A stretch of DNA of 64,000 bases, from assembly GCA_947625505.1 (NCBI GenBank), contig CANQON010000001.1, positions 28,950-92,949 of the forward strand, given 5' to 3'. The number at the start of each line of letters is the position of its first letter. Within the stretch, counting starts at the first letter, position 1. Below, piece by piece: positions 12,150-63,835 of this stretch. The position numbers and the translations under genes are program-made. Under the pieces are notes generated by a model that had not been told where the DNA came from, ran no database searches, and saw only the letters and a program-made list of their open reading frames with translations. The stretch comes from an uncultured Bacilli bacterium. Lineage in GTDB: Bacteria > Bacillota_I > Bacilli_A > RF39 > UBA660.

Positions 12150-12392
12150 ATGGCTTTTTCTGATGGATTTTTTAATCGTATTGAATCCAAAACTAAAGTA
12201 GATAAAAATACTATTCTTGAATTAGCACGTGAATTACAAGAAAATGACTTAAAAAATGAGAGTACATTAAGAAATGTTATTCAAAAATTAAGTCAAATGA
12301 CAGGTAAACCTGTAAGTCAGGAACAAGAAAATAAAATTATTAATGCCGTTATGCAAGACAAAGTACCAAAAGACGTTGATAAGATGTTTTAA
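12150..12392 (+). CDS. spoVIF: stage VI sporulation protein F-like (YjcC/SpoVIF family)
   Basis: At 80 aa, the pattern FFNRIESKT.V…ILELAR.LQ…DE.TLRNVIQKL.QMTGK.V…E.KII parallels B. subtilis SpoVIF. Confidence 0.6.
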   Translation: MAFSDGFFNRIESKTKVDKNTILELARELQENDLKNESTLRNVIQKLSQMTGKPVSQEQENKIINAVMQDKVPKDVDKMF

Positions 12393-42357: not shown

Positions 42358-43620
42358 ATGGAAAAAAAGAACGAAAAAGAAATTATTATAAAAATTGAAG
42401 GTGCTGATTGGGAAAAAATATTAGATGAAGCATTTAAAAAAGCTAATCGTAAAGCTAAAATAGCTGGTTTTCGTCCTGGTAAAGCTCCAAAAAATGTCTA
42501 TATAAAACATTATGGAAAAGAAAGTCTATATTATGAAGCTTCTAATAAAGCTATTGAAGTAGCATATGATCGTTTATTAGAAGAAAATGAAGATTTACAA
42601 ATTGTTACAGAACCTACTGTTAATATTAATAGTATTGATGATTCTGGTATTGAGTTTAAGTTCTTATTAACTTTAAAACCAGAAGTAAAATTAGGAAAAT
42701 ACAAAGGTTTAAAGATTAAGAAAGATAAAGTAGAAGTAACACAAGAAGAAATAGATCATTCAATTGAACATATGCGTGAGCATTATAAAGAGAATGTTAC
42801 TAAAGAGGGTAAAATTAAAAAAGGTGACATTGCTGTTATCGATTTTGAAGGATTTAAAGATGGTGTAGCATTCCCTGGAGGAAAAGGAGAAAATTATTCC
42901 TTAGAAATTGGAAGTAATACATTTATTCCTGGTTTTGAAGATAAACTAATTGGTTTAAAAGCAGGTGATGAGAAAGAAATTAAACTTACTTTCCCAGAAG
43001 ATTATCATGCTGAAGACTTAAAAGGACAAAAAGTTGTATTCAAAGTTAAAGTTAATGAAGTTAAAGAAGTTGTTATTCCAGAATTAGATGCCGATTTCTT
43101 TGCTGATTTAGGTATGGAAGGTATCGATAGTAAAGAAGCTTTAGAAAAACAAGTAAAAGAAAATTTAACAGCGCAAAAAGAAAAAGAAGCAGAAGATAAA
43201 TGGACAGAAGATTTATTAGCAGAAGTAACAAAAAACTCAGAGTTAGATGTACCAGAAGCTATGATTAATGATGAACAAAATAGAATGATTAGAGAGTATA
43301 GTCAAAATTTACAAATGCAAGGTATATCTTTAGATCAATTCTATAAGTTTACTGGAATGACCGAAGAATCATTAAAAGCTGAATATAAAGAACAAGCAGC
43401 TAAGAGAGTTACATATCGTTTAATATTAGATGCTATTATCGAAGCTGAAAAAATTGATGCTACTGAAGAAGAAGTTAATAAAGAAATTGAAGAGTTATCT
43501 AAAAAGTATAATATGACAACAGAAGAATTTACTAATAACTTTGGTAGTGAAATGATGAAGTACGAATTAAAAGCTCGTAAAGCATTTAACTTATTAAAAG
43601 GAATTAAAGATGATAAATAA
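42358..43620 (+). CDS. tig: trigger factor
   Basis: The ribosome-binding signature GFRPGKAP is followed by the FKBP-like PPIase domain and the C-terminal domain. Length is 420 aa. Confidence 0.95.
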   Translation: MEKKNEKEIIIKIEGADWEKILDEAFKKANRKAKIAGFRPGKAPKNVYIKHYGKESLYYEASNKAIEVAYDRLLEENEDLQIVTEPTVNINSIDDSGIEFKFLLTLKPEVKLGKYKGLKIKKDKVEVTQEEIDHSIEHMREHYKENVTKEGKIKKGDIAVIDFEGFKDGVAFPGGKGENYSLEIGSNTFIPGFEDKLIGLKAGDEKEIKLTFPEDYHAEDLKGQKVVFKVKVNEVKEVVIPELDADFFADLGMEGIDSKEALEKQVKENLTAQKEKEAEDKWTEDLLAEVTKNSELDVPEAMINDEQNRMIREYSQNLQMQGISLDQFYKFTGMTEESLKAEYKEQAAKRVTYRLILDAIIEAEKIDATEEEVNKEIEELSKKYNMTTEEFTNNFGSEMMKYELKARKAFNLLKGIKDDK

Positions 43621-43622
43621 AA

Positions 43623-43653
43623 AGACATCCTAATTTAAAGGATGCCTTTTTTC
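43623..43653. terminator. bidirectional intrinsic terminator
   Basis: GACATCCT-aatttaa-AGGATGCC is followed by TTTTTT on the + strand and an A/T run on the – strand, between convergent tig and ftsW/rodA. Confidence 0.75.
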
Positions 43654-44763
43654 TATCTTCGTAATATTAAGGATAATACCAATAATAATCATATAACTTA
43701 AAAGACTAGAACCTCCGTAGCTTATAAAGGGTAGGGTAATACCCGTAATAGGAAGTAAGCCAAAAGTCATACCAATATTTTGTATTTGTTGATATATTAA
43801 CATAGCTACTGTGCCTCCAATAATATATTTATGAATATTATTTTTAGCTTTATAAGCAATATTAATAAGTCTTAAATCTAATATTAATAATAAGCCTAAA
43901 AGAAGGATAGAACCTATAAAACCAAAGTTTGATGCATATACAGCAAAGATAAAGTCTGTTTGTGGTTCAGGAAAATAGATAGGGGTGTTATTTAGTCCAA
44001 AACCTAGTAATCCACCAGATCCTATAGCTGTAATACCGTTTTCTAATTGGTATCCACTGCCACTAGACCAATCAAGTAAACGATCAACTCTTAAGAAGAA
44101 ACTTGTACCAAATAGTTGTATAAATAATTCTTGATTAAGAAAATAAATGGAAACAATTCCTCCAACTAAGAATGTTGCTAATCCTATAATAGCTATAAAC
44201 CATCGATAGCGTATACCTGATATAAATAACATAATAATAGTGATTAATAAATAAATGATAACAACACCAGTATCAGGTTGTAAGAAAGTTAAAAGACTAG
44301 GAATACCTACGATGATAGCAATTCTAATTAAAAAGAAAAATTCTTCACGAATGGTAGGATGAGGATAATCTTCATGAAATTTATTAATAGTAGTACTTAA
44401 AGTTAAAATTAATATTATTTTCATAAATTCACTAGGTTGAAAGACACCAACATGAGGTATTTTAAACCAACAACGAGCATTATTAACAGGTTCTCCAAAT
44501 ATTAGAAGCAAGATTAAAGATATAATGCCTCCAATATATAAGTATTTACTAATCTTCATAATATTTTTATTATCAATAAAATAAATACCAATAATAGCTA
44601 ATATACCGATTATATACCATATTAATTGTTTAATAGTATAGTTATCAGCACTAGTTCCTAATAATGTTTCAGCACTATTAATACTAATTAAGCTAATAAT
44701 AGATAAGGCAATAATAATTATGAGAAGTATATAATCAAATTTTATTTTTCTTAAGATACCCAT
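43630..44763 (-). CDS. SEDS-family peptidoglycan glycosyltransferase (FtsW/RodA/SpoVE)
   Basis: About 10 TM helices. SEDS signatures are present (…GSGGLLGFGL…, C-terminal …LPITGITLPFISYGGSS…). RBS AGAGGTGA precedes the ATG at 44763. Confidence 0.85.
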   Translation of the reverse strand: MGILRKIKFDYILLIIIIALSIISLISINSAETLLGTSADNYTIKQLIWYIIGILAIIGIYFIDNKNIMKISKYLYIGGIISLILLLIFGEPVNNARCWFKIPHVGVFQPSEFMKIILILTLSTTINKFHEDYPHPTIREEFFFLIRIAIIVGIPSLLTFLQPDTGVVIIYLLITIIMLFISGIRYRWFIAIIGLATFLVGGIVSIYFLNQELFIQLFGTSFFLRVDRLLDWSSGSGYQLENGITAIGSGGLLGFGLNNTPIYFPEPQTDFIFAVYASNFGFIGSILLLGLLLILDLRLINIAYKAKNNIHKYIIGGTVAMLIYQQIQNIGMTFGLLPITGITLPFISYGGSSLLSYMIIIGIILNITKIEKRHPLN

Positions 44764-44899
44764 TAAATCACCTCTAAATATATTACAACAATTAAACTTA
44801 TTATACAATTAAAAAGCAAAAATAATATATATAAATGTCGATTTTGTTTTCATAAAAAAATTTGGAATTTTAAAAGTTTTATAGTATAATGTTTTCTAG

Positions 44900-45232
44900 G
44901 TGATGTTAATGGATCCTATATTAATAAAATATATTTCAATAATATTAATATTGTTAATTGTTGCAATCGCTATTGCGAGAACAAAGAAAAAAGACTTTCG
45001 TTTAGAAGCTAATAAGTTAGTTGAATTATTAGGAGGTAAAGATAATATTGTTAATTATTCCTTTAATAAATCCCGTTTCATAGTTGATTTAAAAGATGTT
45101 AATTTAGCTAATAAGGAAGCTATCCAAAAAATGGGGGCTCAAGGTATTGTCGAAATTGATAATCAATTAAAGATTATTTTAGGAGAAAATGCTAAACAAA
45201 TAAAAAAATATATTCGTGAATTAGATGAGTAA
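44900..45232 (+). CDS. membrane-anchored PTS EIIB-like domain protein lacking the phospho-Cys
   Basis: One N-terminal TM helix. LVELLGGKDNIVNYSFNKSRFIVDLKDV…AIQKMGAQGIVEIDNQLKIILGENAKQI parallels the glucose-family EIIB fold (…LGGKENI…C.TRLR…GA.GV…Q.IIG…), but the catalytic Cys position is occupied by Asn/Phe. Confidence 0.45.
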   Translation: MMLMDPILIKYISIILILLIVAIAIARTKKKDFRLEANKLVELLGGKDNIVNYSFNKSRFIVDLKDVNLANKEAIQKMGAQGIVEIDNQLKIILGENAKQIKKYIRELDE

Positions 45233-45248
45233 TAACTCATCTTTTTTT
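45223..45248 (+). terminator. intrinsic terminator
   Basis: GATGAGT-aata-ACTCATC followed by T8. Confidence 0.75.
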
Positions 45249-45285
45249 TCGACATTATACGACAGCAATTTTCGCTATAATTAGC

Positions 45286-46452
45286 ATGGTGATGAATATG
45301 AATTGGTTTGAAAAAATAATAATTAGTATGTTGTTATTAACGTTTCCTTTATTTTGTTATTTATTTCATATTGTTACGAATAAAAATATTGATGAAAAAC
45401 ATCGTGATTTATGTTTAGAATTTGCTTTAATAAGTATATATTATTTAAATGTTAAGTATCAATTAAATGACTTATATACTGTTTTATTAGCTACCATACC
45501 AATTGCTTTTGCTTATCGAAAAAAATTTTATTTAGTAACATTAATTCTTATTTTAGTATCTTTTATTTTATATTATAGTAATGATTATTTTTTATTATTA
45601 ATAATGAATATTATTATGATTATTTCTTTTAGTATTAATAAGAATTTCCGTCGTTACTTAATAGGTTTTACATTACTTAGTATTACATGCTTAATAATAC
45701 TTAATCAAAGTAATATTATCTATTTAGTTGCCTACTTATTGTTAGCTGATTTTGCTAACTACACATTAACTAAGGGAGAAGATTTGATTAATTATCATAT
45801 CGAGTATAAAGATTTAAAGAAAGAGCATGAAATTAGAAACTCTTTATTTAAGATAACCCATGAAATAAAAAATCCTTTAGCGGTTTGTAAAGCTTATATA
45901 GATATGTTTGATTATAATGATATAAAATGCGCTCAAAAATATATTCCTATTATTTCTAGTGAAATAGATAATTTGCTTGTTTTATTACAAGATTTCTTAC
46001 TGGTTAATAAAGATAATATTAATTTTGATATTATGGATATAAATATCTTATTAGAAGATATTGTAAGATCAATGGGGGAATTAAATAGAATTGATATTAC
46101 TTTGGAAACCGTTGATGAAGAAATATATATTAATGGTGATTATAATCGTTTAACACAAGTTCTTACTAATCTAGTAAAGAATAGTTATGAAGCAAATGCT
46201 GATGATATTATTATTAGGCTATCTCTTACTAGTGATAACGTTTTAATTGAAATAGTTGATAATGGAGATGGAATATCCGAATTAGATAAAGATAAAATAT
46301 ATACACCATTTTATACGACGAAAAAGAATGGCACAGGACTAGGGGTTTCTTTATCAAAAGAAATTATTGAAGCTCATAATGGTACTTTAGAATATTATAG
46401 TAATAATCAAGGTACAACAGCTAAAATTCTATTACCCCAACTAGTAATATAG
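45286..46452 (+). CDS. orphan multi-TM sensor histidine kinase (HisKA + HATPase_c; KinB-like architecture)
   Basis: 5–6 N-terminal TM helices. H-box ITHEIKNPL, N-box LVKNSYEA, G1 DNGDGI and G2 GTGLGVS are present. No adjacent response regulator is seen. The start is uncertain: TATAAT sits immediately upstream, so the transcript may be leaderless. Confidence 0.8.
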   Translation: MVMNMNWFEKIIISMLLLTFPLFCYLFHIVTNKNIDEKHRDLCLEFALISIYYLNVKYQLNDLYTVLLATIPIAFAYRKKFYLVTLILILVSFILYYSNDYFLLLIMNIIMIISFSINKNFRRYLIGFTLLSITCLIILNQSNIIYLVAYLLLADFANYTLTKGEDLINYHIEYKDLKKEHEIRNSLFKITHEIKNPLAVCKAYIDMFDYNDIKCAQKYIPIISSEIDNLLVLLQDFLLVNKDNINFDIMDINILLEDIVRSMGELNRIDITLETVDEEIYINGDYNRLTQVLTNLVKNSYEANADDIIIRLSLTSDNVLIEIVDNGDGISELDKDKIYTPFYTTKKNGTGLGVSLSKEIIEAHNGTLEYYSNNQGTTAKILLPQLVI

Positions 46453-46494
46453 ATAAATTATCTAAAACGTGATAAAATTATTATAGGTGATGAT

Positions 46495-47988
46495 ATGAAA
46501 CCATTAGTATTATGTATTATGGATGGTGTAGGAGAGAGAAAAGAATTACATGGAAATGCTGTAAAACAAGCTGATACTCCTATTTTAGATATGTTAAAAG
46601 GTAAATATGGATATAGTTTATTAGAAGCAAGTGGAACAAAAGTAGGACTACCAGAAGGCCAAATGGGTAATAGTGAAGTAGGTCATATGAATATTGGTGC
46701 AGGTAGAATTATTTATCAACCACTAGAACTAATCAATAACGCTATTAAAGATCAAACTTTTTACCAAAATGAAGAATTATTAAGAGCTATTAATCATGTA
46801 AAAAGATATAATTCAAAATTACATATTATGGGATTAATTAGTGATGGGGGAGTACACTCACATATTAATCATTTATTAGCTATATTAGATATGTGTAAAT
46901 TAAATAATGTTAGTAATATATATTTACATTTGTGTACAGATGGAAGAGATGTTGATCCTCATAGCGCCTATAGTTATATAGCTCGAGTTGAAGATAAGTT
47001 AAGAGAAGTAGGAGGCATTATTGCAACTATAAGTGGTAGATATTATACTATGGATCGTGATAATAATTATGATCGTTTACAAAAAGGGTATGATGCTATT
47101 GTTTATGGTAATGGATTAAGTAGTAATTCTCCTAAAGAAGCTATTGATATGAGTTATCAAAATGATATTAGTGATGAATTTATTGTACCAACAGTCTTTA
47201 CTGATAAAGGTACAGTAGATGATAATGATGCTTTTATTACTTTTAACTTCCGTAAAGATCGTTTACGTGAATTATTTACAGCTTTAACTAATCCTAATTT
47301 TAATGATATGCCTGTTAAAAAAATTAATAATTTATATGTACTTACGATGTTACCTGTTGTTGAATCTGTAATAGCGCCTCATGCTTTTGATGATCCAAAT
47401 CCTCATCATATATTAGGAGAAGTATTAGCTGATAATGGATTAAAACAATTACGTATTGCGGAAACAGAAAAGTATGCACATGTTACCTTCTTCTTTGATG
47501 GAGGAAAAGAAGTAGATTATCCAAATGAGAAGAAAATACTTATTCCTTCTCCTAAAGTAGCGACTTATGATTTAAAACCTGAAATGAGTGCTTATGAAGT
47601 AACAGAGAATTTAATTAATGAATTACCTTTCGTTGATGTTGTTATTTTAAATTTTGCTAATGGCGATATGGTAGGACATACAGGAGTATTTGATGCTGCT
47701 GTTAAAGCTGTGGAAGTTGTTGATGAATGTATTGGTAAAATATATGATAAAGTTGTTAGCTTAGAAGGTACTTTATTTATTATAGCTGATCATGGTAATA
47801 GTGATTATATGTTAGATGATGATGATAATGTTATAACAAGTCATTCAACTAGTTTAGTACCTTGTATTATTACTAAAGAGGGTATTAAATTAAAAAATGG
47901 TAAATTAGCAGATGTAGCGCCAACAATGTTACGTTTATTAAATATTGAGATACCTAGTGAAATGACAGGAGATGTCTTAATTGGCTAG
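46495..47988 (+). CDS. gpmI: 2,3-bisphosphoglycerate-independent phosphoglycerate mutase
   Basis: Catalytic and metal-binding motifs are all intact: IMDGVG, GNSEVGH, SDGGVHSH, TDGRDVDP, NGDMVGHTG and IIADHGNSD. Confidence 0.95.
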   Translation: MKPLVLCIMDGVGERKELHGNAVKQADTPILDMLKGKYGYSLLEASGTKVGLPEGQMGNSEVGHMNIGAGRIIYQPLELINNAIKDQTFYQNEELLRAINHVKRYNSKLHIMGLISDGGVHSHINHLLAILDMCKLNNVSNIYLHLCTDGRDVDPHSAYSYIARVEDKLREVGGIIATISGRYYTMDRDNNYDRLQKGYDAIVYGNGLSSNSPKEAIDMSYQNDISDEFIVPTVFTDKGTVDDNDAFITFNFRKDRLRELFTALTNPNFNDMPVKKINNLYVLTMLPVVESVIAPHAFDDPNPHHILGEVLADNGLKQLRIAETEKYAHVTFFFDGGKEVDYPNEKKILIPSPKVATYDLKPEMSAYEVTENLINELPFVDVVILNFANGDMVGHTGVFDAAVKAVEVVDECIGKIYDKVVSLEGTLFIIADHGNSDYMLDDDDNVITSHSTSLVPCIITKEGIKLKNGKLADVAPTMLRLLNIEIPSEMTGDVLIG

Positions 47989-49736: not shown

Positions 49737-51329
49737 ATGAACGAAAAGAAAACAGTATTATTTTTAATGAATGGATTTGGAACTGAATCCGCTAAATCAT
49801 TTGAAGTATATTCTAAAGAAGTAATGCCTACTTTTGATACACTTATTAACGCTTATCCATTTAAATTATTATTTGCATCAGGTGAATTAATAGGCGCTAA
49901 TAAAAATGAAGTATCAAATTTTAAGACAGGATACTATAACTTTAGTAGTTTTGGACATCCAAGTAAAAAAGAAGATGTTTTAAATAGTAAAATAGCTGCT
50001 AATGAATTTAATAATAATCCTGTTATCAATAATAGTATTGATATAGCTGTTCAAAATAAGTCTAATTTACACATTGTATTTACTTTAGGTGATAAGGTAA
50101 ATAATGAAAGATATGAACATTTAAAACAATATTTAGAATTAGCTGTATCTAAAAACGTTGGTAAGATATATGTACACCTTATTTTAGGTGATAGTAGTAC
50201 AAGAGGATTAAAAATAGGAAGTCAATGCTTAACTAATTTTAAAAATAGAGTTTTACGTTATTATCCTCAAATTATTGTTGCATCACTAGCAGGAAGAATG
50301 TATGTAAAAAATGGATCTGCTAATGATATTGCTAACTATTATCGTATGATGGTTAGTGCCGTAGGAGAAATATGGACAGATTACGAAGCAACTTTAACAA
50401 AAAAATATGAACACGGTATGAATGATGATAATATGATTGCATTCTTAACTATACGTGAAAATATGTTACTTGAAGGTGACAGCATCTTTATGTTTAACTA
50501 TAGTAACAATATAGCAAGACAATTTTTAGATGTTGTTATAAATCCAAAAAAGTATTTTCCAACTAGTAATGTACCAGAAAATATTCATATTAACTCTTTA
50601 TTTACTATTAATAATTTGCCTCAAATACCACGTGCTTTTGAGGATGCTGTACCAGATACTTATTTATTAGATAAAATACCTGATACAAAAAAAGTCTTAA
50701 TTATGGCTACTAAAGAGCGTATACCTTATGTTAGTAAAACATTAAATGGATTTAGGCCTTCATTTAAAAGCAATGTTAGTGTATGGCCAATAGAAGATCG
50801 TAAAAAGAGATTTCAAAGCATTAGTCAGTATTTAGCTGCCTATATTAATCAAGATATATATGATTTAATAATCGTTGATTGTGAATTATATGATGAAGGT
50901 GCTGATGAACGTACGATAGCTAAAGTAATAGATAACATGAAAGAATTAGATAAATGTTTAAATATTACTTATCATCGTGCTATGGATAAGAATTATCGTT
51001 TAATAGCAACTTCATTATATGGAATTAAACAAAGATTTAAGTTAACAGCAACTATGGAATTAGTTGATTTATCACAAAAGACCCCATTCTTACTTGTTGA
51101 TAAAGAAATAAGAAGATTAGATATAGTCTTTAAAAATGAGGGAACATTTATTGATGTAGCTCGTTTAATTGCGATATCTTTTGGTTCTCAAATGTCAAAT
51201 AACTTAATTCAAATAGAAACAGTCGAAGAAAAGAAAAGTAGTAACAAAAAGAAATATATTATATTAGCTATACCAATAGCTATCTTATTAATATTGGTTA
51301 TAGCGTATATTTATATGATGTATTTTTAA
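49737..51329 (+). CDS. catalytically degenerate iPGM (GpmI) paralogue with a C-terminal TM anchor; first gene of the T7SS-like locus
   Basis: It aligns along its length with the window's own GpmI: VLFLMNGFGTE vs VLCIMDGVGER; LLFASGE vs LLEASGT; LHIVFTLGD…KIYVHLILGD vs LHIMGLISDGG…NIYLHLCTDGRD; LIIVDCELYDEGADERTIAKVIDNMKELDKC vs VVILNFANGDMVGHTGVFDAAVKAVEVVDEC. The catalytic Ser motif and the metal ligands DH/GH/DHG are lost. It ends with a hydrophobic helix, KKYIILAIPIAILLILVIAYIYMMYF. Confidence 0.7.
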   Translation: MNEKKTVLFLMNGFGTESAKSFEVYSKEVMPTFDTLINAYPFKLLFASGELIGANKNEVSNFKTGYYNFSSFGHPSKKEDVLNSKIAANEFNNNPVINNSIDIAVQNKSNLHIVFTLGDKVNNERYEHLKQYLELAVSKNVGKIYVHLILGDSSTRGLKIGSQCLTNFKNRVLRYYPQIIVASLAGRMYVKNGSANDIANYYRMMVSAVGEIWTDYEATLTKKYEHGMNDDNMIAFLTIRENMLLEGDSIFMFNYSNNIARQFLDVVINPKKYFPTSNVPENIHINSLFTINNLPQIPRAFEDAVPDTYLLDKIPDTKKVLIMATKERIPYVSKTLNGFRPSFKSNVSVWPIEDRKKRFQSISQYLAAYINQDIYDLIIVDCELYDEGADERTIAKVIDNMKELDKCLNITYHRAMDKNYRLIATSLYGIKQRFKLTATMELVDLSQKTPFLLVDKEIRRLDIVFKNEGTFIDVARLIAISFGSQMSNNLIQIETVEEKKSSNKKKYIILAIPIAILLILVIAYIYMMYF

Positions 51330-53266: not shown

Positions 53267-56200
53267 ATGTTAGTATCATTAATTAAAAGTACGAGAATCA
53301 ATACGTTAACTTTACCTAATAGAATTATAGGTAACTATTGGGTTACAGATTATGATGATAATAATAATGAACAAAATTTAATTAGTATTGAAGCTCAAGA
53401 TGGGGCATGGCGTCTTATAAGTAATGATGATATTGCTGTTGTAGAAAATAATGCTGAAAGAGATTATGTCTATTTAAAAGAATATGCTTTTTACTTATTA
53501 AAATTTAAGCAAACTAATACATACTTACTATTATATTGTTCTCCTGTCTATGATAAAACTTTTAAAAGATATTATATTGGTTCTAATCAAGAGATTACTA
53601 TTGGTAATAATAATGCTAATGCCATATACTATGATAATTCGGGTGTTGATAATGTACATGCTAAATTAGCTTACTATTCAGGTAGTTTTATTGTTACTGA
53701 TAATAATAGTCGTTTAGGAGTATATGTTAATAAAATACGTGTTCAAAAACAACAAAAGTTAGAAAATGGGGATATTATATTTATTGCGGGTTTAAAAATA
53801 ATTGTTTTAATTGAAGATAATGTTCCAATTATTATTGTTAATAATCCTGATGGATTAGTTAGATGTCAATCTAATGTTTTAAAAGCTCAAGAGTTAAAAA
53901 CAATAGAAAATCCTAGTGAGTTATTAAATACAGTTGATGATCCTGATGATGTTTTAGATGTGGATTTATATAAAGAAGATGATTATTTTCATAAAAAACC
54001 ACGTTTTAAGTCTAATGTTAAGACATTAGATATTCAAATAGATGCTCCTCCTAGTGCTGAAAAGAGTGAAGAGATGCCTGTTATGTTAACATTAGGGCCT
54101 ATGGTAACAATGGGAGTATCATCAGCTGTTATGAGTATTACAGCTGTTACTAATGTTTTAGCGCATAATAGTACTTGGGGACAAGCTATGCCTGCTATTG
54201 CGATAGGTACAGCTATGTTAGGTAGTTTAATATTATGGCCTTCTTTAACAAGACGTTATGAAACAAAAAGAAAACAACGTAAAGAAGAAATAAGACAATT
54301 AAAGTATAGTCAATATATTGAAGGTAAACGTCAAACAATAGTTGAAACTATTCGTACTCAAAGACAAATTTTAGCTGAAAATAATTTATCTTTAGAAGAG
54401 TGTCAACAAGTTATTTTAAAGCGTAAAATGAATTTATGGGAACGTAAATATGGTGATGAAGATTTCTTAGTTGTTAACTTAGGATCTGGTGTATTACCTA
54501 TGGATATTAATATTCAATATCCTGAAGAACATTTTTCTTTAGAAGATGATAATTTAAGAGAAATGGTTATGCGTTTAGGTAGTGAACCTAAAAACCTAGC
54601 TGATGTTCCTTTAACTATTTCTTTATATGAAAAAAATATTTTAGCGCTTATTGGTACTAAAAAATTAAATAAATCATATATTGATCGTTTAATTTTACAA
54701 TTAGTAACATTCCATAGTTATGATGAACTAAAGATTGTTGTCTTTACTTCTAAAAATAATGAAGAGAGTTGGGATTATATAAAGATTCTTCCTCATTGTT
54801 GGAGCAATGATAAATCAATACGTTTCTTTGGTACAACAAATGATGAGATAAAAGAAGTATGTTATCATTTAGATCGTGAATTATCTTCACGTAGAGATGA
54901 AGAAGAACAAGTAAAAAGTAATTCACCTTATTATTTAATTATTACAGACTCTATTAAAACAATACGTAGTTTTGATGTTATTAAAGATATATTAGGATTA
55001 CAAGAAAATTATGGCTTTGGATTATTAATTATGAATGATCGCGTATCTAATTTACCTACAGAGTGTAAGGCTTTTATTAATGTATCAGAAAAGAATTCTG
55101 ACTTATTTGAGAATGTCTTAAATACTAATCATTTAAACTTCCGTATTGATTTTGATACGAATATTAATATGTATGAATGTGCGAAAGTATTAGCTAATAT
55201 GCCTATTGAAATAGGTGATGATAGTGAAGCTTTACCTAATAAGTATGGTTTCTTAGAAATGTATAATGTAGGTAAAGTAGAACAGTTAAACTCACTTAAT
55301 AGATGGCAAAAGAATAATCCTATTTTAACCTTACAAGCTCAAGTTGGAGTTGGTAAGGGAGGAGAAAAAATAAATCTTGATTTACATGAAAAATTTCATG
55401 GACCACATGGATTAGTAGCAGGATCTACAGGTAGTGGTAAATCAGAATTTATTATTACTTATATCTTATCAATGGCTGTTAACTATCATCCTAATGAAGT
55501 TCAATTTATTTTAATAGATTATAAAGGAGGAGGTCTAGCTGGAGCTTTTGAAAATAAAGAAACAGGTATTAGACTACCTCATTTAGCAGGGACAATTACT
55601 AACCTTGATACTAGTGAGATGAATCGTGCTTTAGCATCTATTGAATCAGAATTAAAAAGAAGACAAAGAATTTTTAATGAAGCTAGAGAGTTATCTGGTG
55701 AAAGTACGATTGATATATATAAATATCAAAAATTATATCGTAATGGAGTAGTTAAAGAACCTATAGCGCACTTATTTATCATTAGTGATGAGTTTGCTGA
55801 ATTAAAGAGTCAACAACCTGAATTCATGCAACAACTTATCAGTACAGCGCGTATAGGAAGATCTTTAGGTGTTCACCTTATTTTAGCAACGCAGAAACCT
55901 GCTGGTATTGTTGATAATCAAATATGGAGTAATACGCGTTTTAGAGTATGCTTACGTGTTCAAGAAAAAAGTGATAGTAATGATGTTATTAAATGCCCAG
56001 ATGCTGCTTTAATTAAACAGACAGGTCGTTTCTATTTACAAGTAGGATATAATGAAATATTTGAATTAGGACAATCAGCATGGTGTGGAGGTAAATATTA
56101 TCCTGCTGAAAAATTAAAGAAAACAGTTGATACTTCAATTGACTTTGTCGATAATGTAGGCTTTGTTATTAAGTCTGCTGAAAAAGATAAACATAAAGAT

Positions 56201-57901
56201 AGTGATAAAGCTCAAGGTGAAGAATTAAATAATGTTGTTGCATATTTATCTAATATAGCTGCAACCGAAGGAATTAGTGTTAAACAATTATGGTTAGATC
56301 GTATTCCTGATTATATTACAGTAGCTGCTTTAATGCGTAAATATGATATTAAGCCAAGTAAGAATTATATCGCGCCTATTATTGGTGAATATGATGATCC
56401 ATCTAATCAAAGACAAGATATTTTACGTATTCCTTTTGTAAATGATGGAAATGGTATTGTTTATGGAGTTAGTGGAAGTGGTAAAGAAAATTTAATTAGT
56501 TCAATGATTTTCTCTTCAATGTACCTATATACTCCAGAAGAATTAAATTATTATGTTCTAGATTTTGGATCTGAAACATTAAAAGTATTTGATAGTTGTC
56601 CATTAGTAGGAGATGTTTTACTTGCTAATGATAAAGATAAAATAGCTAATTTATTTAAGTTATTATCTAATAAAGTAGAAGAACGTAAAAAGTTATTTGC
56701 TCCTTATGGAGGAAGCTATGAATACTATATGGAAAATAGTGATAACAAATTGCCTGTTATTGTTGTAATAATAAATAACTTTGAAGTATATGATGATAGT
56801 TATCTTACATATGAAGAGTTGTTATTATCACTTACAAGAGAAGGATCTAAATATGGTATTTACTTCTTCTTATCTGTTAATACACCTAATGGTGTAAGAT
56901 TCAAAATGCGTCAAAACTTTAATCAAGAATTCGTTTTACAACAAAATAATGAAAATGATTATACAGCTATTTTGGGTAATGTTAAAAAGAATTATCCATC
57001 TAAGATTAAGGGTAGGGGTATTATTAAGAAAAATGATATTATATATGAATTCCAAACAGCATACCCTGCACCTAAAAATAAAGAAAGTTATACCTTTATT
57101 AAGGAACAATGCGAGACATGCGCTAAAGAATTTGATAAAGTGGCAGAACATGTTCCAACCTTACCTGATCATATAGCTTTCAAAGATGTAAAACACGAAT
57201 TAGGTAAGAGTGACGCTATGATAATTGGTTATAATAAAGAGACATTAGATATTGTAAAATATGACTTTACACATAAACCAGTTACTCTTATTACTGCTCA
57301 AGACATTAGTATGGCTAGTCACTTTGTTAGACCATTAATTAAACAATTTGCATCTTTAAATAAATGTGATGTCTTAGTTATTGATGCCGAAGAATTACAA
57401 TTAACAATGGGTATTGGTAACCTTAAATATGTTGATGTTAACTTTGATGATAATTTTACTAAATTAGAAAAATTTATTAATGATTATTATCAACAATATC
57501 TTGATAGTGATTATGATAGACACATATTTGAAAATGAAAGACCTGCAACAATATTTATTTGTGGCTTAGAAAGCTTTAGAAATAAATTAGGTATTGAAAA
57601 CAAAAATAAATTTGGCCAACTTTTTGAACATGCTAAAGATTTAGGTATCGTTAACTTTGTTATAGTTGAAAGTGCTGATAAACTTAAGAAATTTGAGACA
57701 GAAAGTTGGTATAAATCAGCTGTTAATAATACAACAGGTATTTGGGTAGGAAATGGTGTTTCTGAACAATTTATCTTGAAGTTAACTAAAGTAACAAAAG
57801 AAATAAGAGAAGATATTCCAGATAACTTCTGTTATGTAATAGCTAGAGGTAAACCAATTCTTACACAATTTATTGAAAGTTTTGATATTTTAAATGATTA
57901 G
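53267..57901 (+). CDS. essC: T7SS FtsK/SpoIIIE-family ATPase EssC/YukB, paralogue 1 (1544 aa)
   Basis: N-terminal FHA-like domains are followed by 2 TM helices (about aa 270–330) and three ATPase domains. D1 Walker A is GPHGLVAGSTGSGKSEFIITYILSMAVNYHP, with …ILATQKP…GRFYLQVGY. D2 is YGVSGSGKENL. D3 is degenerate. Confidence 0.9.
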   Translation: MLVSLIKSTRINTLTLPNRIIGNYWVTDYDDNNNEQNLISIEAQDGAWRLISNDDIAVVENNAERDYVYLKEYAFYLLKFKQTNTYLLLYCSPVYDKTFKRYYIGSNQEITIGNNNANAIYYDNSGVDNVHAKLAYYSGSFIVTDNNSRLGVYVNKIRVQKQQKLENGDIIFIAGLKIIVLIEDNVPIIIVNNPDGLVRCQSNVLKAQELKTIENPSELLNTVDDPDDVLDVDLYKEDDYFHKKPRFKSNVKTLDIQIDAPPSAEKSEEMPVMLTLGPMVTMGVSSAVMSITAVTNVLAHNSTWGQAMPAIAIGTAMLGSLILWPSLTRRYETKRKQRKEEIRQLKYSQYIEGKRQTIVETIRTQRQILAENNLSLEECQQVILKRKMNLWERKYGDEDFLVVNLGSGVLPMDINIQYPEEHFSLEDDNLREMVMRLGSEPKNLADVPLTISLYEKNILALIGTKKLNKSYIDRLILQLVTFHSYDELKIVVFTSKNNEESWDYIKILPHCWSNDKSIRFFGTTNDEIKEVCYHLDRELSSRRDEEEQVKSNSPYYLIITDSIKTIRSFDVIKDILGLQENYGFGLLIMNDRVSNLPTECKAFINVSEKNSDLFENVLNTNHLNFRIDFDTNINMYECAKVLANMPIEIGDDSEALPNKYGFLEMYNVGKVEQLNSLNRWQKNNPILTLQAQVGVGKGGEKINLDLHEKFHGPHGLVAGSTGSGKSEFIITYILSMAVNYHPNEVQFILIDYKGGGLAGAFENKETGIRLPHLAGTITNLDTSEMNRALASIESELKRRQRIFNEARELSGESTIDIYKYQKLYRNGVVKEPIAHLFIISDEFAELKSQQPEFMQQLISTARIGRSLGVHLILATQKPAGIVDNQIWSNTRFRVCLRVQEKSDSNDVIKCPDAALIKQTGRFYLQVGYNEIFELGQSAWCGGKYYPAEKLKKTVDTSIDFVDNVGFVIKSAEKDKHKDSDKAQGEELNNVVAYLSNIAATEGISVKQLWLDRIPDYITVAALMRKYDIKPSKNYIAPIIGEYDDPSNQRQDILRIPFVNDGNGIVYGVSGSGKENLISSMIFSSMYLYTPEELNYYVLDFGSETLKVFDSCPLVGDVLLANDKDKIANLFKLLSNKVEERKKLFAPYGGSYEYYMENSDNKLPVIVVIINNFEVYDDSYLTYEELLLSLTREGSKYGIYFFLSVNTPNGVRFKMRQNFNQEFVLQQNNENDYTAILGNVKKNYPSKIKGRGIIKKNDIIYEFQTAYPAPKNKESYTFIKEQCETCAKEFDKVAEHVPTLPDHIAFKDVKHELGKSDAMIIGYNKETLDIVKYDFTHKPVTLITAQDISMASHFVRPLIKQFASLNKCDVLVIDAEELQLTMGIGNLKYVDVNFDDNFTKLEKFINDYYQQYLDSDYDRHIFENERPATIFICGLESFRNKLGIENKNKFGQLFEHAKDLGIVNFVIVESADKLKKFETESWYKSAVNNTTGIWVGNGVSEQFILKLTKVTKEIREDIPDNFCYVIARGKPILTQFIESFDILND

Positions 57902-57971: not shown

Positions 57972-57999
57972 ATTTGATGAGAATAGGGGTCGTGTGATT

Positions 58000-60900
58000 A
58001 TGCTGATATCAATAATGGATAACGACAAATTGACGAAGTTTAATTTACCTGAAAAAGTAGAAGAAACTTTCCTTATTAAGTATCGCCCTGTCAATTCTAA
58101 TATTGACAAGGATATTAATGTGGAATCATCTAATGGTAAATGGTATTTAAAAAGTAATGGTAGTATTGATGTTGCTATCGATAATAAAATTATTGATAAA
58201 GCAGTACTAGAAGAATATAATCAGTATTTTCTATCAGTAAGTGGACAAAAAATATACTCTATCCTATATTGTTCTCCTTCAAATGAAGAAAAACAAAAAT
58301 ATAAATTTAATACGGATCATATAACAATAGGTAAGGATACTAATTCTACTATTTGTTATCAAAATAATTTAATGGCACCTACACATGCAACAATATATTG
58401 TCAAAATAATACTTGGTTTATCAAAAGTAGTGATTTAGATTGGGCTCGTGTTTATGTTAATAATGTACGTGAATATAATGCTAAGTTACATGTAGGGGAT
58501 GTTATTTTTATAAATGGGTTAAAGATTATTTGGATGAATAGTTTTATCGTAATTAATAATCCTAAAGGAGAAGCTAATATATCTAATATTTTGACACCTT
58601 ATGCTGAAGAAAATGTTGATAATACTAAATATTCTGAAATATCAGAGGATGAAGAGAATGTTCCTTTATATGATGAAAAAGAATATTTTAGTCATGTTCC
58701 TAGACTTCGTACAGTATTTGAAACAGATACTGTAGAGATTGATGAACCTCCAATGTCTCAAAATGTTGAAGATCAACCTTTTATTGCAACAATTGGTACT
58801 TCACTTATGATGCTTGCTTCAACATTAGTTATGGGCTCATCTATATTAAATAGTATTAGTAATGGAACTGCTAATATCATAATGATTATTCCACAAGCAG
58901 CTATGATTATTGCAATGATTATTGCAACGATTGTTCTTCCTAAATATCTTCGTAAATATCAACGTTCTAAAAGAGACGAAAAAGAAGCTTTAAGGCAAAA
59001 AAAGTATACCAATTATTTAAATGATAAAGAAGCTAAAATCAAATCTTTATTAAAAGCAAAACAACAAGTTTTAAATGAAAACTTTCCTATGCTAAATGAA
59101 GCTATTGTTACTGTAAATAATCGTACTAGAAGACTATGGGAAAAAGAAATAAAGGATGATGATTTCTTAACAATACGTTTAGGCTTAGGTAATATGCCAT
59201 CTAATATTACGATTAATGCTGCTAAAGAAAGATTTACCCTAGATGATGATAATTTAAGAGCTCGTGTTCATGCAATTGTAGATCACTCTAAAATACTTGA
59301 AAATGTTCCTGTTACTTTTTCCTTTGCTGAAAAGAATATTTCAGCTATTATAAGTGAAGGACATTATAATAAGAAATATATTGATGGCTTAATCCTTCAG
59401 ATTTTAGCATATCATAGTCCTGCTGATTTAAAGATTGTCTTACTTACTAATTATGCTAATACGAATAGATGGAGTTATTTAAAGTTTGCTCCACATTGTT
59501 GGACTGATGACCGAGAGATGCGTTTTTATGCTGATGATATGGAAGAAATGAAGAATATATCATCATATCTTGAAAACGAATTAAATAAAAGAAAAGCATT
59601 ATTAGAAAATAATGATAATAAAGATATTAAAAGACAAGATGGATTTAAAAACTTTTCACCATATTACTTAATCATTACTGATGACTATCGTAATACTAAG
59701 AATGTTCAGTTTTTATCAACATTCTTACACGAAGAAGAAAACTATGGTTTTTCTTTATTACTAGTTGATGATTCTATGCGTAATATGCCTAATGAATGTG
59801 ATACATTTATTGATGTTTTAGATAAAAATAGTTGTATCTTTCAAAAGGAATTAAGTAGTCAAACACAAACGAATTTTATTAATGAGTATGTTGATTCTGT
59901 TAATATGGATGATATAGTCTTTAAGTTAGCTAATATTCCTGTTGCATCTAGAGAAATGATGAGTTTATTACCTAAATCTATTTCTTTCTTAGAAATGTAT
60001 AATGTAGGTAATATCAAACAATTAAATATTTTAAATAGATGGAAGACAAGTAATCCTGTTATTACACTTGAAGTTCCTGTTGGAGTACATCCTAGTGGAG
60101 AATTATTTAAATTAAATCTACATGAAAAATTTCATGGACCACATGGTTTAATTGCAGGATCTACAGGTAGTGGTAAATCCGAATTTATTATTACTTACAT
60201 CTTATCTATGGCTATTAACTATCATCCTGATGATGTTCAATTTGTATTAATAGACTATAAAGGTGGAGGCTTAGCAGGAGCATTTGAAAACCGTGAAAGT
60301 GGAGTTCAAATACCTCATTTAGCAGGTACGATAACTAATTTAGATACTAATGAAATGAATCGTACTTTAGTATCTATTCAAAGTGAGTTAAAACGTCGTC
60401 AAGCTAAATTTAATGAAGCTCGTGATCGCTTAGATGAAAGTACGATTGATATTTATAAATATCAGAGATATTATCATGAAGGATTACTAGATGAACCTAT
60501 TGCACATTTATTTATTATATGTGATGAGTTTGCGGAATTAAAGAGTCAACAACCTGAATTCATGCAACAACTTATTAGTACATCACGTATAGGTCGTTCT
60601 TTAGGAGTTCACCTTATTTTAGCAACGCAGAAACCTACGGGAGTTGTTAATGATCAAATATGGTCTAACTCAAGATTTAAAGTATGTTTAAAAGTACAGA
60701 GTCGTAGTGATAGTATGGAAATGTTAAAGCGTCCTGAAGCGGCATCAATTAAAGATACAGGACGTTTCTATTTACAAGTAGGCTATGATGAATTATTTGA
60801 ATTAGGTCAATCAGCATGGTGTGGTGCTAAATATATTCCAACTGAACGTATAAAGAAAAAACAAGATGATTCAATAACTTTTGTAGATAATACTGGATAT

Positions 60901-62595
60901 GTAATTAAAAATGTTAATGATATTCATCGTAAAGAAGATTCTGTATCAAAAGGGGAACAATTAACAAATATTGTTAAATACTTATCAGAGTTAGCTGAAA
61001 AAGAGAATTATCATCCACATCGTTTATGGTTAAATAAAATACCTGATGTTATTTATGTAGATGAGTTAAAGAAAAAATATAATTATAAACCAAAACGTTT
61101 TGTTATGGATTCTATAATAGGGGAGTATGATGATCCATCTAATCAAAAACAAGATGTTGTTAAATTAAACTTATCTAGTGATGGCAATGCTTTAATATAT
61201 GGCTTACCTACTACAGGTAAAGAAAACTTATTAGCAACCATTATCTATTCAATGGTAACAGATCATAGTGTAGATGAATTAAATATGTATATTATGGATT
61301 TTGGAGCTGAAACATTACGTATGTTTCAAAATATTCCTCATATAGGTGATTTAGCTTACATTGAAGATGAAGAAAAAATAATTAAATTATTAGAATTAAT
61401 CGATAATGAAATAGAATTACGTAAGAATTTATTTGTTGACTATGCAGGTAGTTATATTGATTATTGTACGAATAGTGGAAATACTTTACCTACAATTGTT
61501 ATAATGATTAATGGTTATGAAAACTTCCAAGAAAATTTTGGTAAATATGAAGATAGTCTTTATACACTTATTCGTGAAAGTAATAAATATGGTATTTATT
61601 TTATAGTAGCGACATCTGTTAATAGTTGTATTCGTAGTCGTTTACTTCAAAACTTTAATAATCGTTTATCTATGCAACTATCTGATCCAATGGATTATCG
61701 TATTTTACTTAATGCTCCAAAAGATTTAAATCCTGCTCATAATTATGGACGTGGTATTGTTCGTATTAATGATACAGGTTTTGAATTCCAATCAGCATTT
61801 ATAACAGATAAAAATAGAATAGGTGACGCTATTAAGATATTAAGTGCACGTTTAAGTAATTATTATAAACGTCGTGCTCCTAAGATACCAATTTTACCTA
61901 AAAAGGTAATTGATAGTAGTTTACCAATACCTAAGTCATTAGATCAGGTACCTATTGGTGTATTAAAGAAGAATGTAGAACCTGCTTATTATGATTTTGA
62001 ACGTAGTAAATATACAACAATTGGTACTAATATCTTAGATGATAAATTGCCATTCTTTAATGCTTTATTACGTAAATTAAGTGCTATACCAAATTTAAGA
62101 ATTAAAGTAATTGATGCTTATCAAGCATATCAACCACAGATACCGAATGTTACTGTTTATAGTAAAGATTTTGATCAAGTTATTAACATGATGTATCAAG
62201 AACTTGATATTGAAGAAAAACAAAATTATAAAACATTATATTTTGTAGTTGGTATTGGACAGTTAAAAGTAAGATTAAGTAAAGAAGCTCAAACTAAATA
62301 TATGACTATTTTAGGATCATTAAAGAATTTTATTAATAGTTATTTTATCGCTATTGATAGTATTCAAGCTTTACGAAGTCTTGAGTTAGATAGTTGGTAT
62401 CGTAATAATGTCTCTAGATCTGATGGTATATGGTTAGGTGATGGCTTTGGTAGTCAAAGTATTATTAAAGTTTCTAACTTTACTTTAGAAGATCGTAAAG
62501 TAAGCTATCCAGAAATTGCTTATATTGCTAATAAGGGAAAATATGAATTTGTTAAATATATGATTGAAGAGGAGACTGATCAAGATGAGGAATAA
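58000..62595 (+). CDS. essC: T7SS FtsK/SpoIIIE-family ATPase EssC/YukB, paralogue 2 (about 1532 aa)
   Basis: Same architecture as paralogue 1. D1 is nearly identical ([52 protein letters not shown]), while the FHA region, the D2 P-loop (GLPTTGKEN) and the C-terminal D3 have diverged. RBS TAGGGGT precedes the ATG at 58000, which aligns with the paralogue-1 N-terminus (MLVSLI vs MLISIM). Confidence 0.9.
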   Translation: [1531 protein letters not shown]

Positions 62596-62839: not shown

Positions 62840-62893
62840 AAGAATTATATAATTCTTCTTTTTTTACAAAAAAAATAAGGTAAAACCTTATTT
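62838..62893. terminator. convergent pair of intrinsic terminators
   Basis: + strand: GAAGAATTAT/ATAATTCTTC palindrome followed by T7. – strand: AATAAGGT-aaa-ACCTTATT with T8 on the complementary strand. Confidence 0.8.
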
Positions 62894-63199
62894 TATGATT
62901 TGTATTCTTTCTTTAATTACGGTTGCATCAATTTTATCAAAAAGATCACAAACTTCTAAAGAAGTATTATTCATTTCAACAATGCTAGTATTAACATAGT
63001 CTTTAATAAGCACACAATTACCTTTAACTTTACGTATTGCCTCAGGCAAAGCATTTAAATAAGTTCGGTAACTAAATCCTGATGGAATATCTAATCCTTC
63101 AGCTATATTAATAGCTGAAATTAATTCATCGATACCATCATCAATAACAGGCATAAAATAAGATTTTAAGCCATTCGTATTAATAAGTAATTTACTCAT
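62888..63199 (-). CDS. small helical protein (about 103 aa) in the minus-strand Esx-like cluster
   Basis: It overlaps the upstream gene by 8 nt (coupled). It is acidic and predicted alpha-helical. No WxG. Confidence 0.5.
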   Translation of the reverse strand: MSKLLINTNGLKSYFMPVIDDGIDELISAINIAEGLDIPSGFSYRTYLNALPEAIRKVKGNCVLIKDYVNTSIVEMNNTSLEVCDLFDKIDATVIKERIQIIK

Positions 63200-63506
63200 T
63201 ATTTATTTCTACCTTTCGCATAGTCGTTTCAATTTTCTCAGCTGTTTCTTGAAATAGCATACCGAATCTTTTTAAGTTATTATATAAGTTTATATATATT
63301 TCTTTTTCTTGCGTGACTTGAGCGATATATCTATCTGCATCATCACCTTGCCAACCATCTTCACGAGTATTTAAATTACTAATATAAGTAAAAATTGTTT
63401 CAATTATTTCTTCATAGTCATCTGCTAAAGCTACGATATCTTGACCACAAGATTTTATTTTTTTAGTATCACAATCAATACTAGTCATTATTTCTTGTTC
63501 CTCCAT
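63192..63506 (-). CDS. WXG100-like protein (104 aa) with a central WxG
   Basis: …TREDGWQGDDADRYIAQV… is a central W-Q-G between two helical segments, the WXG100 (EsxA/Lap-like) hallmark. Confidence 0.55.
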   Translation of the reverse strand: MEEQEIMTSIDCDTKKIKSCGQDIVALADDYEEIIETIFTYISNLNTREDGWQGDDADRYIAQVTQEKEIYINLYNNLKRFGMLFQETAEKIETTMRKVEINNE

Positions 63507-63520
63507 ATAATAGTAGCATC

Positions 63521-63835
63521 CTATATTTTATCAGCATTTAAATCCAATTCATGAAGACGTGTTATTTCAATATTTAGTTGAGCAATACGACTATTTATCG
63601 TTGGTATTATTTTAGTAATTAGAATATTGTAGATATTATTAATAGAATCAACACTATCTTTTAATTTACTATTATCAGCAATATCACTATCAATACGGTA
63701 GTATTTACCTAATTGATTAGTGGCACTTTCAATATTCGTTGTACTAGTATTTAAGTGTGAACAAATACTTTTTATATTATCCATTAATTTATAATATCTA
63801 TTACGTTCATATTCTAATTCTGATATTAAAGACAT
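63521..63835 (-). CDS. small helical protein (104 aa), Esx/Lap-like helper candidate
   Basis: RBS GGAGG is 6 nt upstream of the ATG. Coiled-coil-like composition and the same size class as its neighbours. Confidence 0.5.
   Translation of the reverse strand: MSLISELEYERNRYYKLMDNIKSICSHLNTSTTNIESATNQLGKYYRIDSDIADNSKLKDSVDSINNIYNILITKIIPTINSRIAQLNIEITRLHELDLNADKI

Follow-up and report, generated by a model that had tools for sequence, protein, structure and literature searches.

What might a small membrane protein with the fold of a sugar phosphotransferase system (PTS) EIIB domain, and with no cysteine on which to carry phosphate, be doing directly upstream of a histidine kinase that has no partner response regulator? 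Two adjacent genes raise this question in a stretch of 64,000 nucleotides (nt; 28% G+C) from an uncultured Bacilli bacterium, referred to here as the window. The new result is a conserved promoter with Spo0A-type boxes, recognised by sequence comparison, on the gene of the orphan kinase, which has seven predicted transmembrane (TM) helices. Taken with the properties of its neighbour, a dead EIIB, this leads us to propose, with somewhat more doubt than confidence, that the dead EIIB modulates a kinase that is both controlled by Spo0A and feeds Spo0A. The features on which the argument turns are as follows.

44862..44890, plus strand: promoter of the EIIB-like gene, TTGGAA-17-TATAAT (10/12 in a consensus scan)
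44909..45232, plus strand: EIIB-like gene, 107 amino acids (aa), Cys-less, with TM residues 4-22, a Lys-rich juxtamembrane stretch and an EIIB-fold domain at ~36-105
45223..45249, plus strand: EIIB-like gene's intrinsic terminator, with a stem of 8 bp across the stop codon and then a T-run
45248..45264, plus strand: tandem boxes TTCGACA-TTA-TACGACA with a 10-bp period, directly after the terminator T-run
45276..45281, plus strand: putative -10 hexamer TATAAT of the kinase gene, 11 nt 3' of box 2, read from the sequence
45298..46452, plus strand: orphan histidine kinase gene, 384 aa, with 7 predicted TM helices, a DHp domain (His188) and HATPase_c

The kinase gene and its tandem-box promoter

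The 0A-box consensus is TGTCGAA, and Spo0A dimers use two boxes 3 bp apart (PMC3485338, PMC2731898). TTCGACA is the reverse complement of this box, and a third, degenerate copy, TTCGCTA, is found at 45271-45277. No -35 hexamer is present at 17-nt spacing to the kinase TATAAT. The tandem pattern TTCGACA-N3-TTCGACA has a single match in the window at two or fewer mismatches. Conservation was examined in related DNA consisting of one genomic neighbourhood per genome (~90 related loci), and all 46 of the 46 tandem matches (at most one mismatch) in 926 kb of this DNA, scanned on both strands, fall at this site. At least one box with no more than one mismatch is present here in every one of the 54 species-level loci with the kinase downstream (54/54), and the tandem pair in 41/54 of these, versus 0/21 kinase-less loci with enough sequence. 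The 11-nt spacing between box and TATAAT-like hexamer is repeated in related loci, and the remainder of the spacer between the two genes is not conserved. Judged by this comparison, the tandem boxes are the phylogenetic footprint of a regulator site that belongs to the kinase gene, and it is likely that the regulator is Spo0A. The boxes lie at roughly -40 and -30 relative to the inferred transcription start.

The kinase itself appears intact. Independent gene calls in identical and related contigs place its start at the ATG at 45298, preceded by the Shine-Dalgarno (SD) sequence GGTGA; a start at 45286 is probably four codons too early. HisKA and HATPase_c domains are present with an intact H-box, and H188, N291, G323/G325 and G345/G347 are invariant among 40 kinase homologues. 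The preliminary description of this DNA had given the kinase five or six TM helices; the structural model (predicted local distance difference test score, pLDDT, 84) has seven before DHp, the seventh (residues 140-203) being continuous with the DHp helix that bears His188. We found neither a PAS nor a HAMP domain in the protein. Conservation is lower in the TM part (0.45) than in the catalytic part (0.70), and Foldseek matched generic catalytic cores only, the 7-TM part being left without a match. With 91.8 bits, confined to the catalytic core, the KinD model stays far below its cut-off of 775 bits. By sequence there is thus no orthology to the characterised sporulation kinases KinA-E, and the label 'KinB-like' that the kinase had been given is an architectural analogy only.

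That the kinase lacks a partner regulator was borne out. No receiver domain was found in the 64 kb by tblastn with CheY, Spo0F, OmpR and Spo0A (best E ~3), and no response regulator is annotated in the flanks of the related loci. Several assemblies made independently agree in this gene order, and the missing regulator is therefore not an assembly artefact that hides an adjacent gene.

We note that the region 3' of the kinase (46453-46494) has no convincing terminator, only an all-A/T 7-bp hairpin, and that 42 nt separate the kinase from gpmI. In this genome the promoter with the boxes may thus drive a common transcript of the kinase gene, gpmI and a gene for a 188-aa membrane protein.

The sporulation setting of the locus rests on two genes in the window and on its relatives.

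9051-10052, strand not stated: gpr, germination protease Gpr (Peptidase_A25)
12150-12392, strand not stated: SpoVIF gene

Both had been reported in the preliminary description and both are present, as sporulation genes in a small-genome organism of 28% G+C; spoIVA and cotZ are seen in the loci of relatives. The uncultured orders RF39, RFN20 and ML615J-28 are predicted to include sporulators, and the related order Erysipelotrichales has been reported to be without a Bacillus-model sporulation sensor kinase (PMC10868615). Given the Spo0A-type boxes, the sporulation genes and the missing Bacillus-type kinase, Spo0A control of a candidate Spo0A kinase would be the most economical reading, and we consider it an evenly balanced question whether the kinase feeds Spo0A. 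The suggestion that this is a candidate sporulation kinase has thus gained support from the tandem boxes and from gpr, spoVIF, spoIVA and cotZ.

An EIIB fold without its cysteine

The EIIB-like open reading frame (ORF) is real, although at 110 aa, as first described, it was probably too long. Independent gene calls in identical and related contigs support the ATG at 44909, preceded by the SD sequence AGGTGA, and the GTG at 44900 is probably three codons too early, giving a protein of 107 aa. A strongly hydrophobic TM helix (residues 4-22) is followed by RTKKKDFR, so that by the positive-inside rule the EIIB-like domain is predicted to be cytoplasmic.

The proposed N-terminal TM helix and glucose-type EIIB fold are supported by several independent comparisons. 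Pfam PF00367 matches the protein at E=9.6e-6 with 25.4 bits, slightly below the gathering score of 27 bits, and is matched by 28/30 diverse family members. NCBIfam models for the EIIB parts of NagE and PtsG match at E ~1e-10, with NagE on top and barely ahead of PtsG. Against IIB-Glc of the PDB, the single sequence gives E=1.6e-5 with phmmer and the family profile gives E=4.9e-16. The AlphaFold2 model (pLDDT 82) shows a single long helix (3-40) that leads from the membrane directly into a b-b-a-b-b-a domain, and the best seven PDB matches of this model by Foldseek are IIB-Glc without exception (E 1e-6 to 4e-4), with Mlc/IIB and IIA/IIB complexes among the top matches. The target-normalised TM-scores range from 0.14 to 0.81, with full-length PtsG models at the low end.

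The phosphorylatable cysteine is replaced, as had been noted. In all alignments DACITRLRV of Escherichia coli stands opposite SFNKSRFIV, such that Cys421 corresponds to Asn52 (Asn55 in the 110-aa numbering), Thr423-Arg424 is retained as Ser-Arg, and Arg426 is Ile. There are zero Cys residues in the whole protein. As far as sequence can tell, it cannot carry phosphate on the canonical Cys, and with this residue lost it would be a pseudo-phosphocarrier, a membrane-tethered binding module and no transport enzyme. No genes for EI, HPr, EIIA or EIIC were found in the window or the ~90 related loci, which cover one neighbourhood only; tblastn with HPr and EIIA-Glc over the same DNA gave no match, a result that is uninformative for the same reason.

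The family is large. At E<=1e-3, 5689 database proteins match the EIIB-like protein, the best 120 of which have 60-100% identity and lengths of 101-187 aa; a library clustered at 50% identity holds 519 family representatives, and relatives are encoded in at least 562 species-representative genomes. These hosts are without exception uncultured gut metagenome-assembled genomes (MAGs) that carry the labels Bacilli, Tenericutes, Erysipelotrichaceae or Acholeplasma sp. CAG:878, and one is a closed 1.54-Mb chromosome (OZ007038.1). A homology search seeded with the most distant members returned proteins of uncultured Bacilli MAGs only and no Mycoplasma names. An alignment of 30 diverse members, too diverse for genome scanning, for which a closer alignment of 11 sequences was used instead, shows a common architecture of TM helix, Lys-rich stretch and EIIB-like domain. 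All members share GG..N and nearly all the Ser of Ser-Arg, and the active-site column is without Cys in 30/30 members, being occupied by N, E, T, L, H, S, K or D. The TM helix in its C-terminal half and the juxtamembrane stretch are also conserved (IAIAI-K/R-x-KK-DF-x-LEANKL), which suggests specific contacts beyond mere anchoring.

Identity to the protein of the window has a median of 71% among the EIIB-like proteins of the species-level loci, versus 39% for the kinase and 61% for the neighbouring RodA; conservation of the EIIB-like protein is comparable to that of trigger factor and of the cofactor-independent phosphoglycerate mutase (iPGM) of the same loci. For a gene carried by genomes of ~1.5 Mb, conservation at this level suggests that its membrane function is important. 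Where NCBI names were returned they were 'PTS transporter subunit EIIB' or 'hypothetical protein'. The dead-EIIB family, carried by hundreds of gut MAGs, is a large, unnamed variant of a known domain family, and because its members cannot carry phosphate, the label 'PTS transporter subunit EIIB' is functionally wrong; the family deserves a name of its own.

Three apparent fusions of EIIB and kinase (P0099, P0136, P0030) were rejected as gene-calling artefacts of genetic code 4 (TGA = Trp), which some MAG pipelines apply in translation and which also accounts for the C-terminal extensions of these proteins. Other database proteins of unusual architecture (P0168, P0184, P0185, P0212, P0231, P0271) are soluble and have three to five tandem Cys-bearing EIIB domains without EIIC. 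One 942-aa EIICB protein has three B domains, the last of which has Cys replaced by Asn.

Transcription units, gene neighbours and competing explanations

Promoter and terminator signals were scored over 88 loci. The promoter core TATAGTATAAT at 44880-44890 is conserved between species, TA[TG]A[GA]TATAAT is found upstream of the EIIB-like gene in 60/88 loci irrespective of the upstream gene, and a -10-like hexamer and a strong SD precede the gene in 82/88 and 83/88 loci, respectively. Nearly all loci have a hairpin and T-run at the EIIB-like stop codon, fixed in position and species-specific in stem sequence, and scoring of hairpin plus T-run by a strict rule passes the terminator in 62/88. 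With its own conserved promoter and terminator the EIIB-like gene is monocistronic and forms no operon with the kinase. The gene had been placed between two strong terminators, of which the one at its 3' end stands, whereas the upstream side is taken up by a divergent promoter region that also serves rodA.

43630..44808, minus strand: rodA, RodA-type SEDS protein (PF01098), divergent from the EIIB-like gene
44836..44842, plus strand: one 0A box close to consensus, TGTCGAT, between rodA and the EIIB-like gene

The SEDS neighbour scores 277 bits with the RodA model, above FtsW and SpoVE; a SpoVE-like identity, and with it a 'sporulation-only' neighbourhood, was therefore rejected. RodA is adjacent and divergent in 50 of 76 species-level loci. 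In the four nearest relatives (L008, L015, L016, L020) the box at 44836-44842 reads TGTCGAA without a mismatch; most other loci lack it. The EIIB-like coding sequence also holds an exact TGTCGAA (45148-45154, at I-V-E of GIVEID), which was rejected as a Spo0A site, with ATTGTCGAA kept in 10/78 orthologues; judged from this sequence comparison it is probably there by chance. An Rfam scan of 43500-46600 found no RNA family.

Sister subfamilies of the EIIB-like protein adjoin RDD/TyrRS, CYTH/Maf/RNase J or NAD kinase genes, and none has a histidine kinase as neighbour. One longer subfamily (120-134 aa) repeatedly has a CYTH-domain gene beside it, which is the immediate neighbour in L094 and L095 and lies beyond a NAD kinase gene in L090. 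Cys-rich ORFs adjoin the EIIB-like gene in L040, L067, L080, L085 and L096, where the kinase is not adjacent; that of L096 is annotated as spore-coat CotZ (PF10612), and the other four are CotY/CotZ-like by eye only.

Further downstream in the window, a divergent iPGM paralogue of 530 aa (49737-51329; 107 bits against a cut-off of 331), with a C-terminal TM helix, sits a few genes 3' of the true gpmI (46495-47988), an arrangement that is kept in L005, L008, L014-L016, L020, L092 and L093. After an EssC-type type VII secretion ATPase with an FHA-like N-terminus (53267-57901; NCBIfam 1006 bits) comes another ORF of about the same length (1533 aa, 57994-62595), and three ORFs of ~104 aa lie on the opposite strand at 62888-63835.

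The mechanism that we propose has the following form. The EIIB-like protein would be bitopic, with a short N-terminus outside and one TM helix running straight into the cytoplasmic EIIB(Glc)-fold domain, made from its own promoter and ended at its own terminator. An activator-type promoter without a -35 hexamer and with two putative Spo0A boxes would put the kinase under Spo0A control; the kinase would give phosphate to Spo0A in organisms where Bacillus-type sporulation kinases are missing, and Spo0A~P would feed back on kinase expression. Fixed rigidly on the cytoplasmic side of the membrane, an EIIB fold that cannot be phosphorylated would be a binding module, and in this sub-clade its likeliest client would be the 7-TM kinase, as modulator or signal-input partner. 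We infer here three contacts: of Spo0A with the boxes, of the kinase with Spo0A as phosphate acceptor, and of the EIIB-like protein with the kinase.

The last of these contacts draws on adjacency and covariation. The kinase lies directly 3' of the EIIB-like gene, 61-139 nt past its stop codon, in 52 of the 73 species-level loci over which kinase adjacency was counted, and this is kept while the genes beyond the kinase vary. Two kinase orthologues of 41-43% identity also have an EIIB-like gene directly upstream. Between EIIB-like protein and kinase the correlation of pairwise distances is r=0.71, and the partial correlation that takes RodA into account is 0.61. Several points weigh against the proposal, however. 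The Spearman coefficient is 0.46 for EIIB-like protein and kinase versus 0.57 for kinase and RodA, the data points in these comparisons not being independent. A conserved terminator and a separate kinase promoter stand between the two genes and make them separate transcription units. The other 21/73 loci of the same sub-clade have a highly conserved EIIB-like gene and no adjacent kinase, RodA adjoins this gene about as regularly as the kinase does (50/76), and the sister subfamilies stand beside unrelated genes, such that the ancestral role of the family would be independent of this kinase. No spo0A was seen in the window or the related-locus DNA, and a box at about -30 could mean repression instead of activation. 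On balance, a direct partnership of EIIB-like protein and kinase is somewhat less likely than not.

Nearly as likely is that the dead EIIB is an autonomous, constitutive housekeeping membrane protein, with a partner such as the membrane-targeting machinery, and that the kinase, still a Spo0A-controlled orphan, is next to it through inherited gene order. The separate conserved promoter and terminator, conservation far above that of the kinase, and persistence of the family without an adjacent kinase in 21/73 loci and in the sister subfamilies all fit such a role. So, by analogy, does the orphan EIIB MG_129/MPN_268 of Mycoplasma, predicted and cross-linked to FtsY (bioRxiv 10.1101/2025.07.01.662654), to which the dead EIIB may be similar. 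An autonomous role sits less well with adjacency kept in 52/73 loci despite changing downstream genes, and with a distance correlation that is higher with the kinase than with RodA. It is improbable that the dead EIIB instead serves at the membrane as a decoy or scaffold on which EIIA(Glc) or HPr docks and no phosphate is accepted, so that it reports or buffers how far the PTS is phosphorylated, whether or not the kinase relays this. The fold and the neighbours of the active-site loop (LGGxxNI, Ser-Arg) are retained, the modelled cytoplasmic, membrane-tethered domain would have the geometry of IIB in EIICB, and the closest structures are IIA-IIB and Mlc-IIB complexes. Against this, Arg426 of E. 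coli IIB-Glc, needed for phosphotransfer, is replaced here by Ile or Val, and EI, HPr, EIIA and EIIC are missing from the window and related loci, a weak argument from one neighbourhood.

More improbable still is a partnership with the divergent RodA-type SEDS protein in wall synthesis or its regulation, which descent from a GlcNAc/MurNAc-type EIIB could underlie. RodA is adjacent and divergent in 50/76 loci, NCBIfam matches best to the EIIB portion of NagE, a GlcNAc transporter, if marginally above PtsG, and these lineages may scavenge wall precursors (PMC10868615). The correlation of EIIB-like and RodA distances is low, however (partial 0.12), sister subfamilies are not beside RodA, and shared intergenic regions of divergent housekeeping genes often arise by chance. 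Sequence homology to EIIB might also suggest a working phosphocarrier that uses another residue, or a decaying fragment of a PTS pseudogene. Both are effectively refuted: there is no Cys anywhere and no conserved nucleophile in the variable Cys column (N, E, T, L, H, S, K, D), and the ORF is intact, under strong purifying selection, found in at least 562 genomes and equipped with its own expression signals.

Our proposal of a dead EIIB that modulates a Spo0A-linked kinase has a bolder form, in which the dead EIIB is the signal-input subunit of the long-missing Spo0A kinase, within a Spo0A positive-feedback loop, in small-genome gut Bacilli (RF39/RFN20/ML615J-28-like). This is unlikely; if true, a relic of sugar phosphotransfer would have been rewired to gate entry into sporulation. 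Apart from the role of the EIIB-like protein, the tandem 0A boxes single out the 7-TM orphan kinase as a candidate for the Spo0A-activating kinase of the uncultured orders related to Erysipelotrichales, in which Bacillus-type kinases are absent (PMC10868615). Sporulation capacity governs the transmission of gut anaerobes, and its trigger in an abundant uncultured group is therefore of ecological value.

Comparison with known systems

IIB-Glc of E. coli PtsG (PDB 1IBA, 1O2F, 3BP3, 3BP8) is the closest relative of the dead EIIB, with the same fold and clear sequence homology; both are cytoplasmic (predicted here) and membrane-held, and they share LGGxxNI and, in the active-site loop, (T/S)-R. 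Unlike IIB-Glc, the EIIB-like protein has Cys421 and Arg426 replaced, a single TM tether of its own, no EIIC fusion, a monocistronic gene, and no EIIC or EIIA gene found nearby. A pure binding role has a precedent in membrane-tethered IIB-Glc, which sequesters Mlc (PDB 3BP8). The Cys-less EIIB(Gat)-like domains of the PRD regulators AtxA, Mga and MafR likewise reuse EIIB as a non-catalytic interaction module (PMC8560693), although they belong to the galactitol-type fold class, are soluble and lie inside DNA-binding regulators. In the literature the term 'EIIB-like' refers almost entirely to these galactitol-type domains of AtxA/Mga regulators.

Mycoplasmas are not known to have histidine kinases, RodA or sporulation. 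By description, MG_129/MPN_268 of Mycoplasma genitalium and M. pneumoniae resembles the dead EIIB in that it is a small EIIB encoded on its own, in a relative of the Bacilli whose genome is reduced, and by this analogy the dead-EIIB family may relate to the puzzling orphan EIIB of minimal Mycoplasma genomes; the mycoplasmal protein is found in a genome without stand-alone EIIA or EIIC, and moonlighting through FtsY binding has been proposed for it (bioRxiv 10.1101/2025.07.01.662654).

Control of a histidine kinase by a PTS-fold protein, through binding and with no sugar phosphotransfer, has a precedent in EIIA-Ntr (PtsN), which controls KdpD and PhoR by binding the transmitter (DHp) domain, and does so in its unphosphorylated form (PMC8534201). 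PtsN differs in that it has an EIIA fold and is soluble, proteobacterial and phosphorylatable, its phosphorylation state being the signal. KinB of Bacillus requires small membrane or lipoprotein helpers (KapB/KbaA). Unlike kinase accessory proteins of the KapB/KbaA, YycH/I or LiaF type, the EIIB-like protein is not encoded in the kinase operon.

The kinase resembles KinB and the orphan kinases of Clostridia as a membrane HisKA/HATPase_c kinase with no adjacent regulator in a host with sporulation genes, and orphan kinases are thought to control Spo0A directly in Clostridioides difficile and Clostridium acetobutylicum (PMC3485338). It differs from these in the conserved tandem 0A-box pair of its promoter, and from KinA-E in that it has no family-level match and has seven TM helices joined directly to DHp. 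The promoter in turn resembles the tandem-0A promoters of Bacillus subtilis abrB and spoIIG/spoIIE and of phages phi29 and Nf, with TGTCGAA twice, 3 bp apart, here on the opposite strand. At spoIIG and spoIIE the spacers are over-long and Spo0A~P is required, and the kinase promoter is similar to these two in having no usable -35 at 17 nt; it departs from the known tandem-0A promoters in that its candidate sites lie at roughly -40 and -30 of the inferred start.

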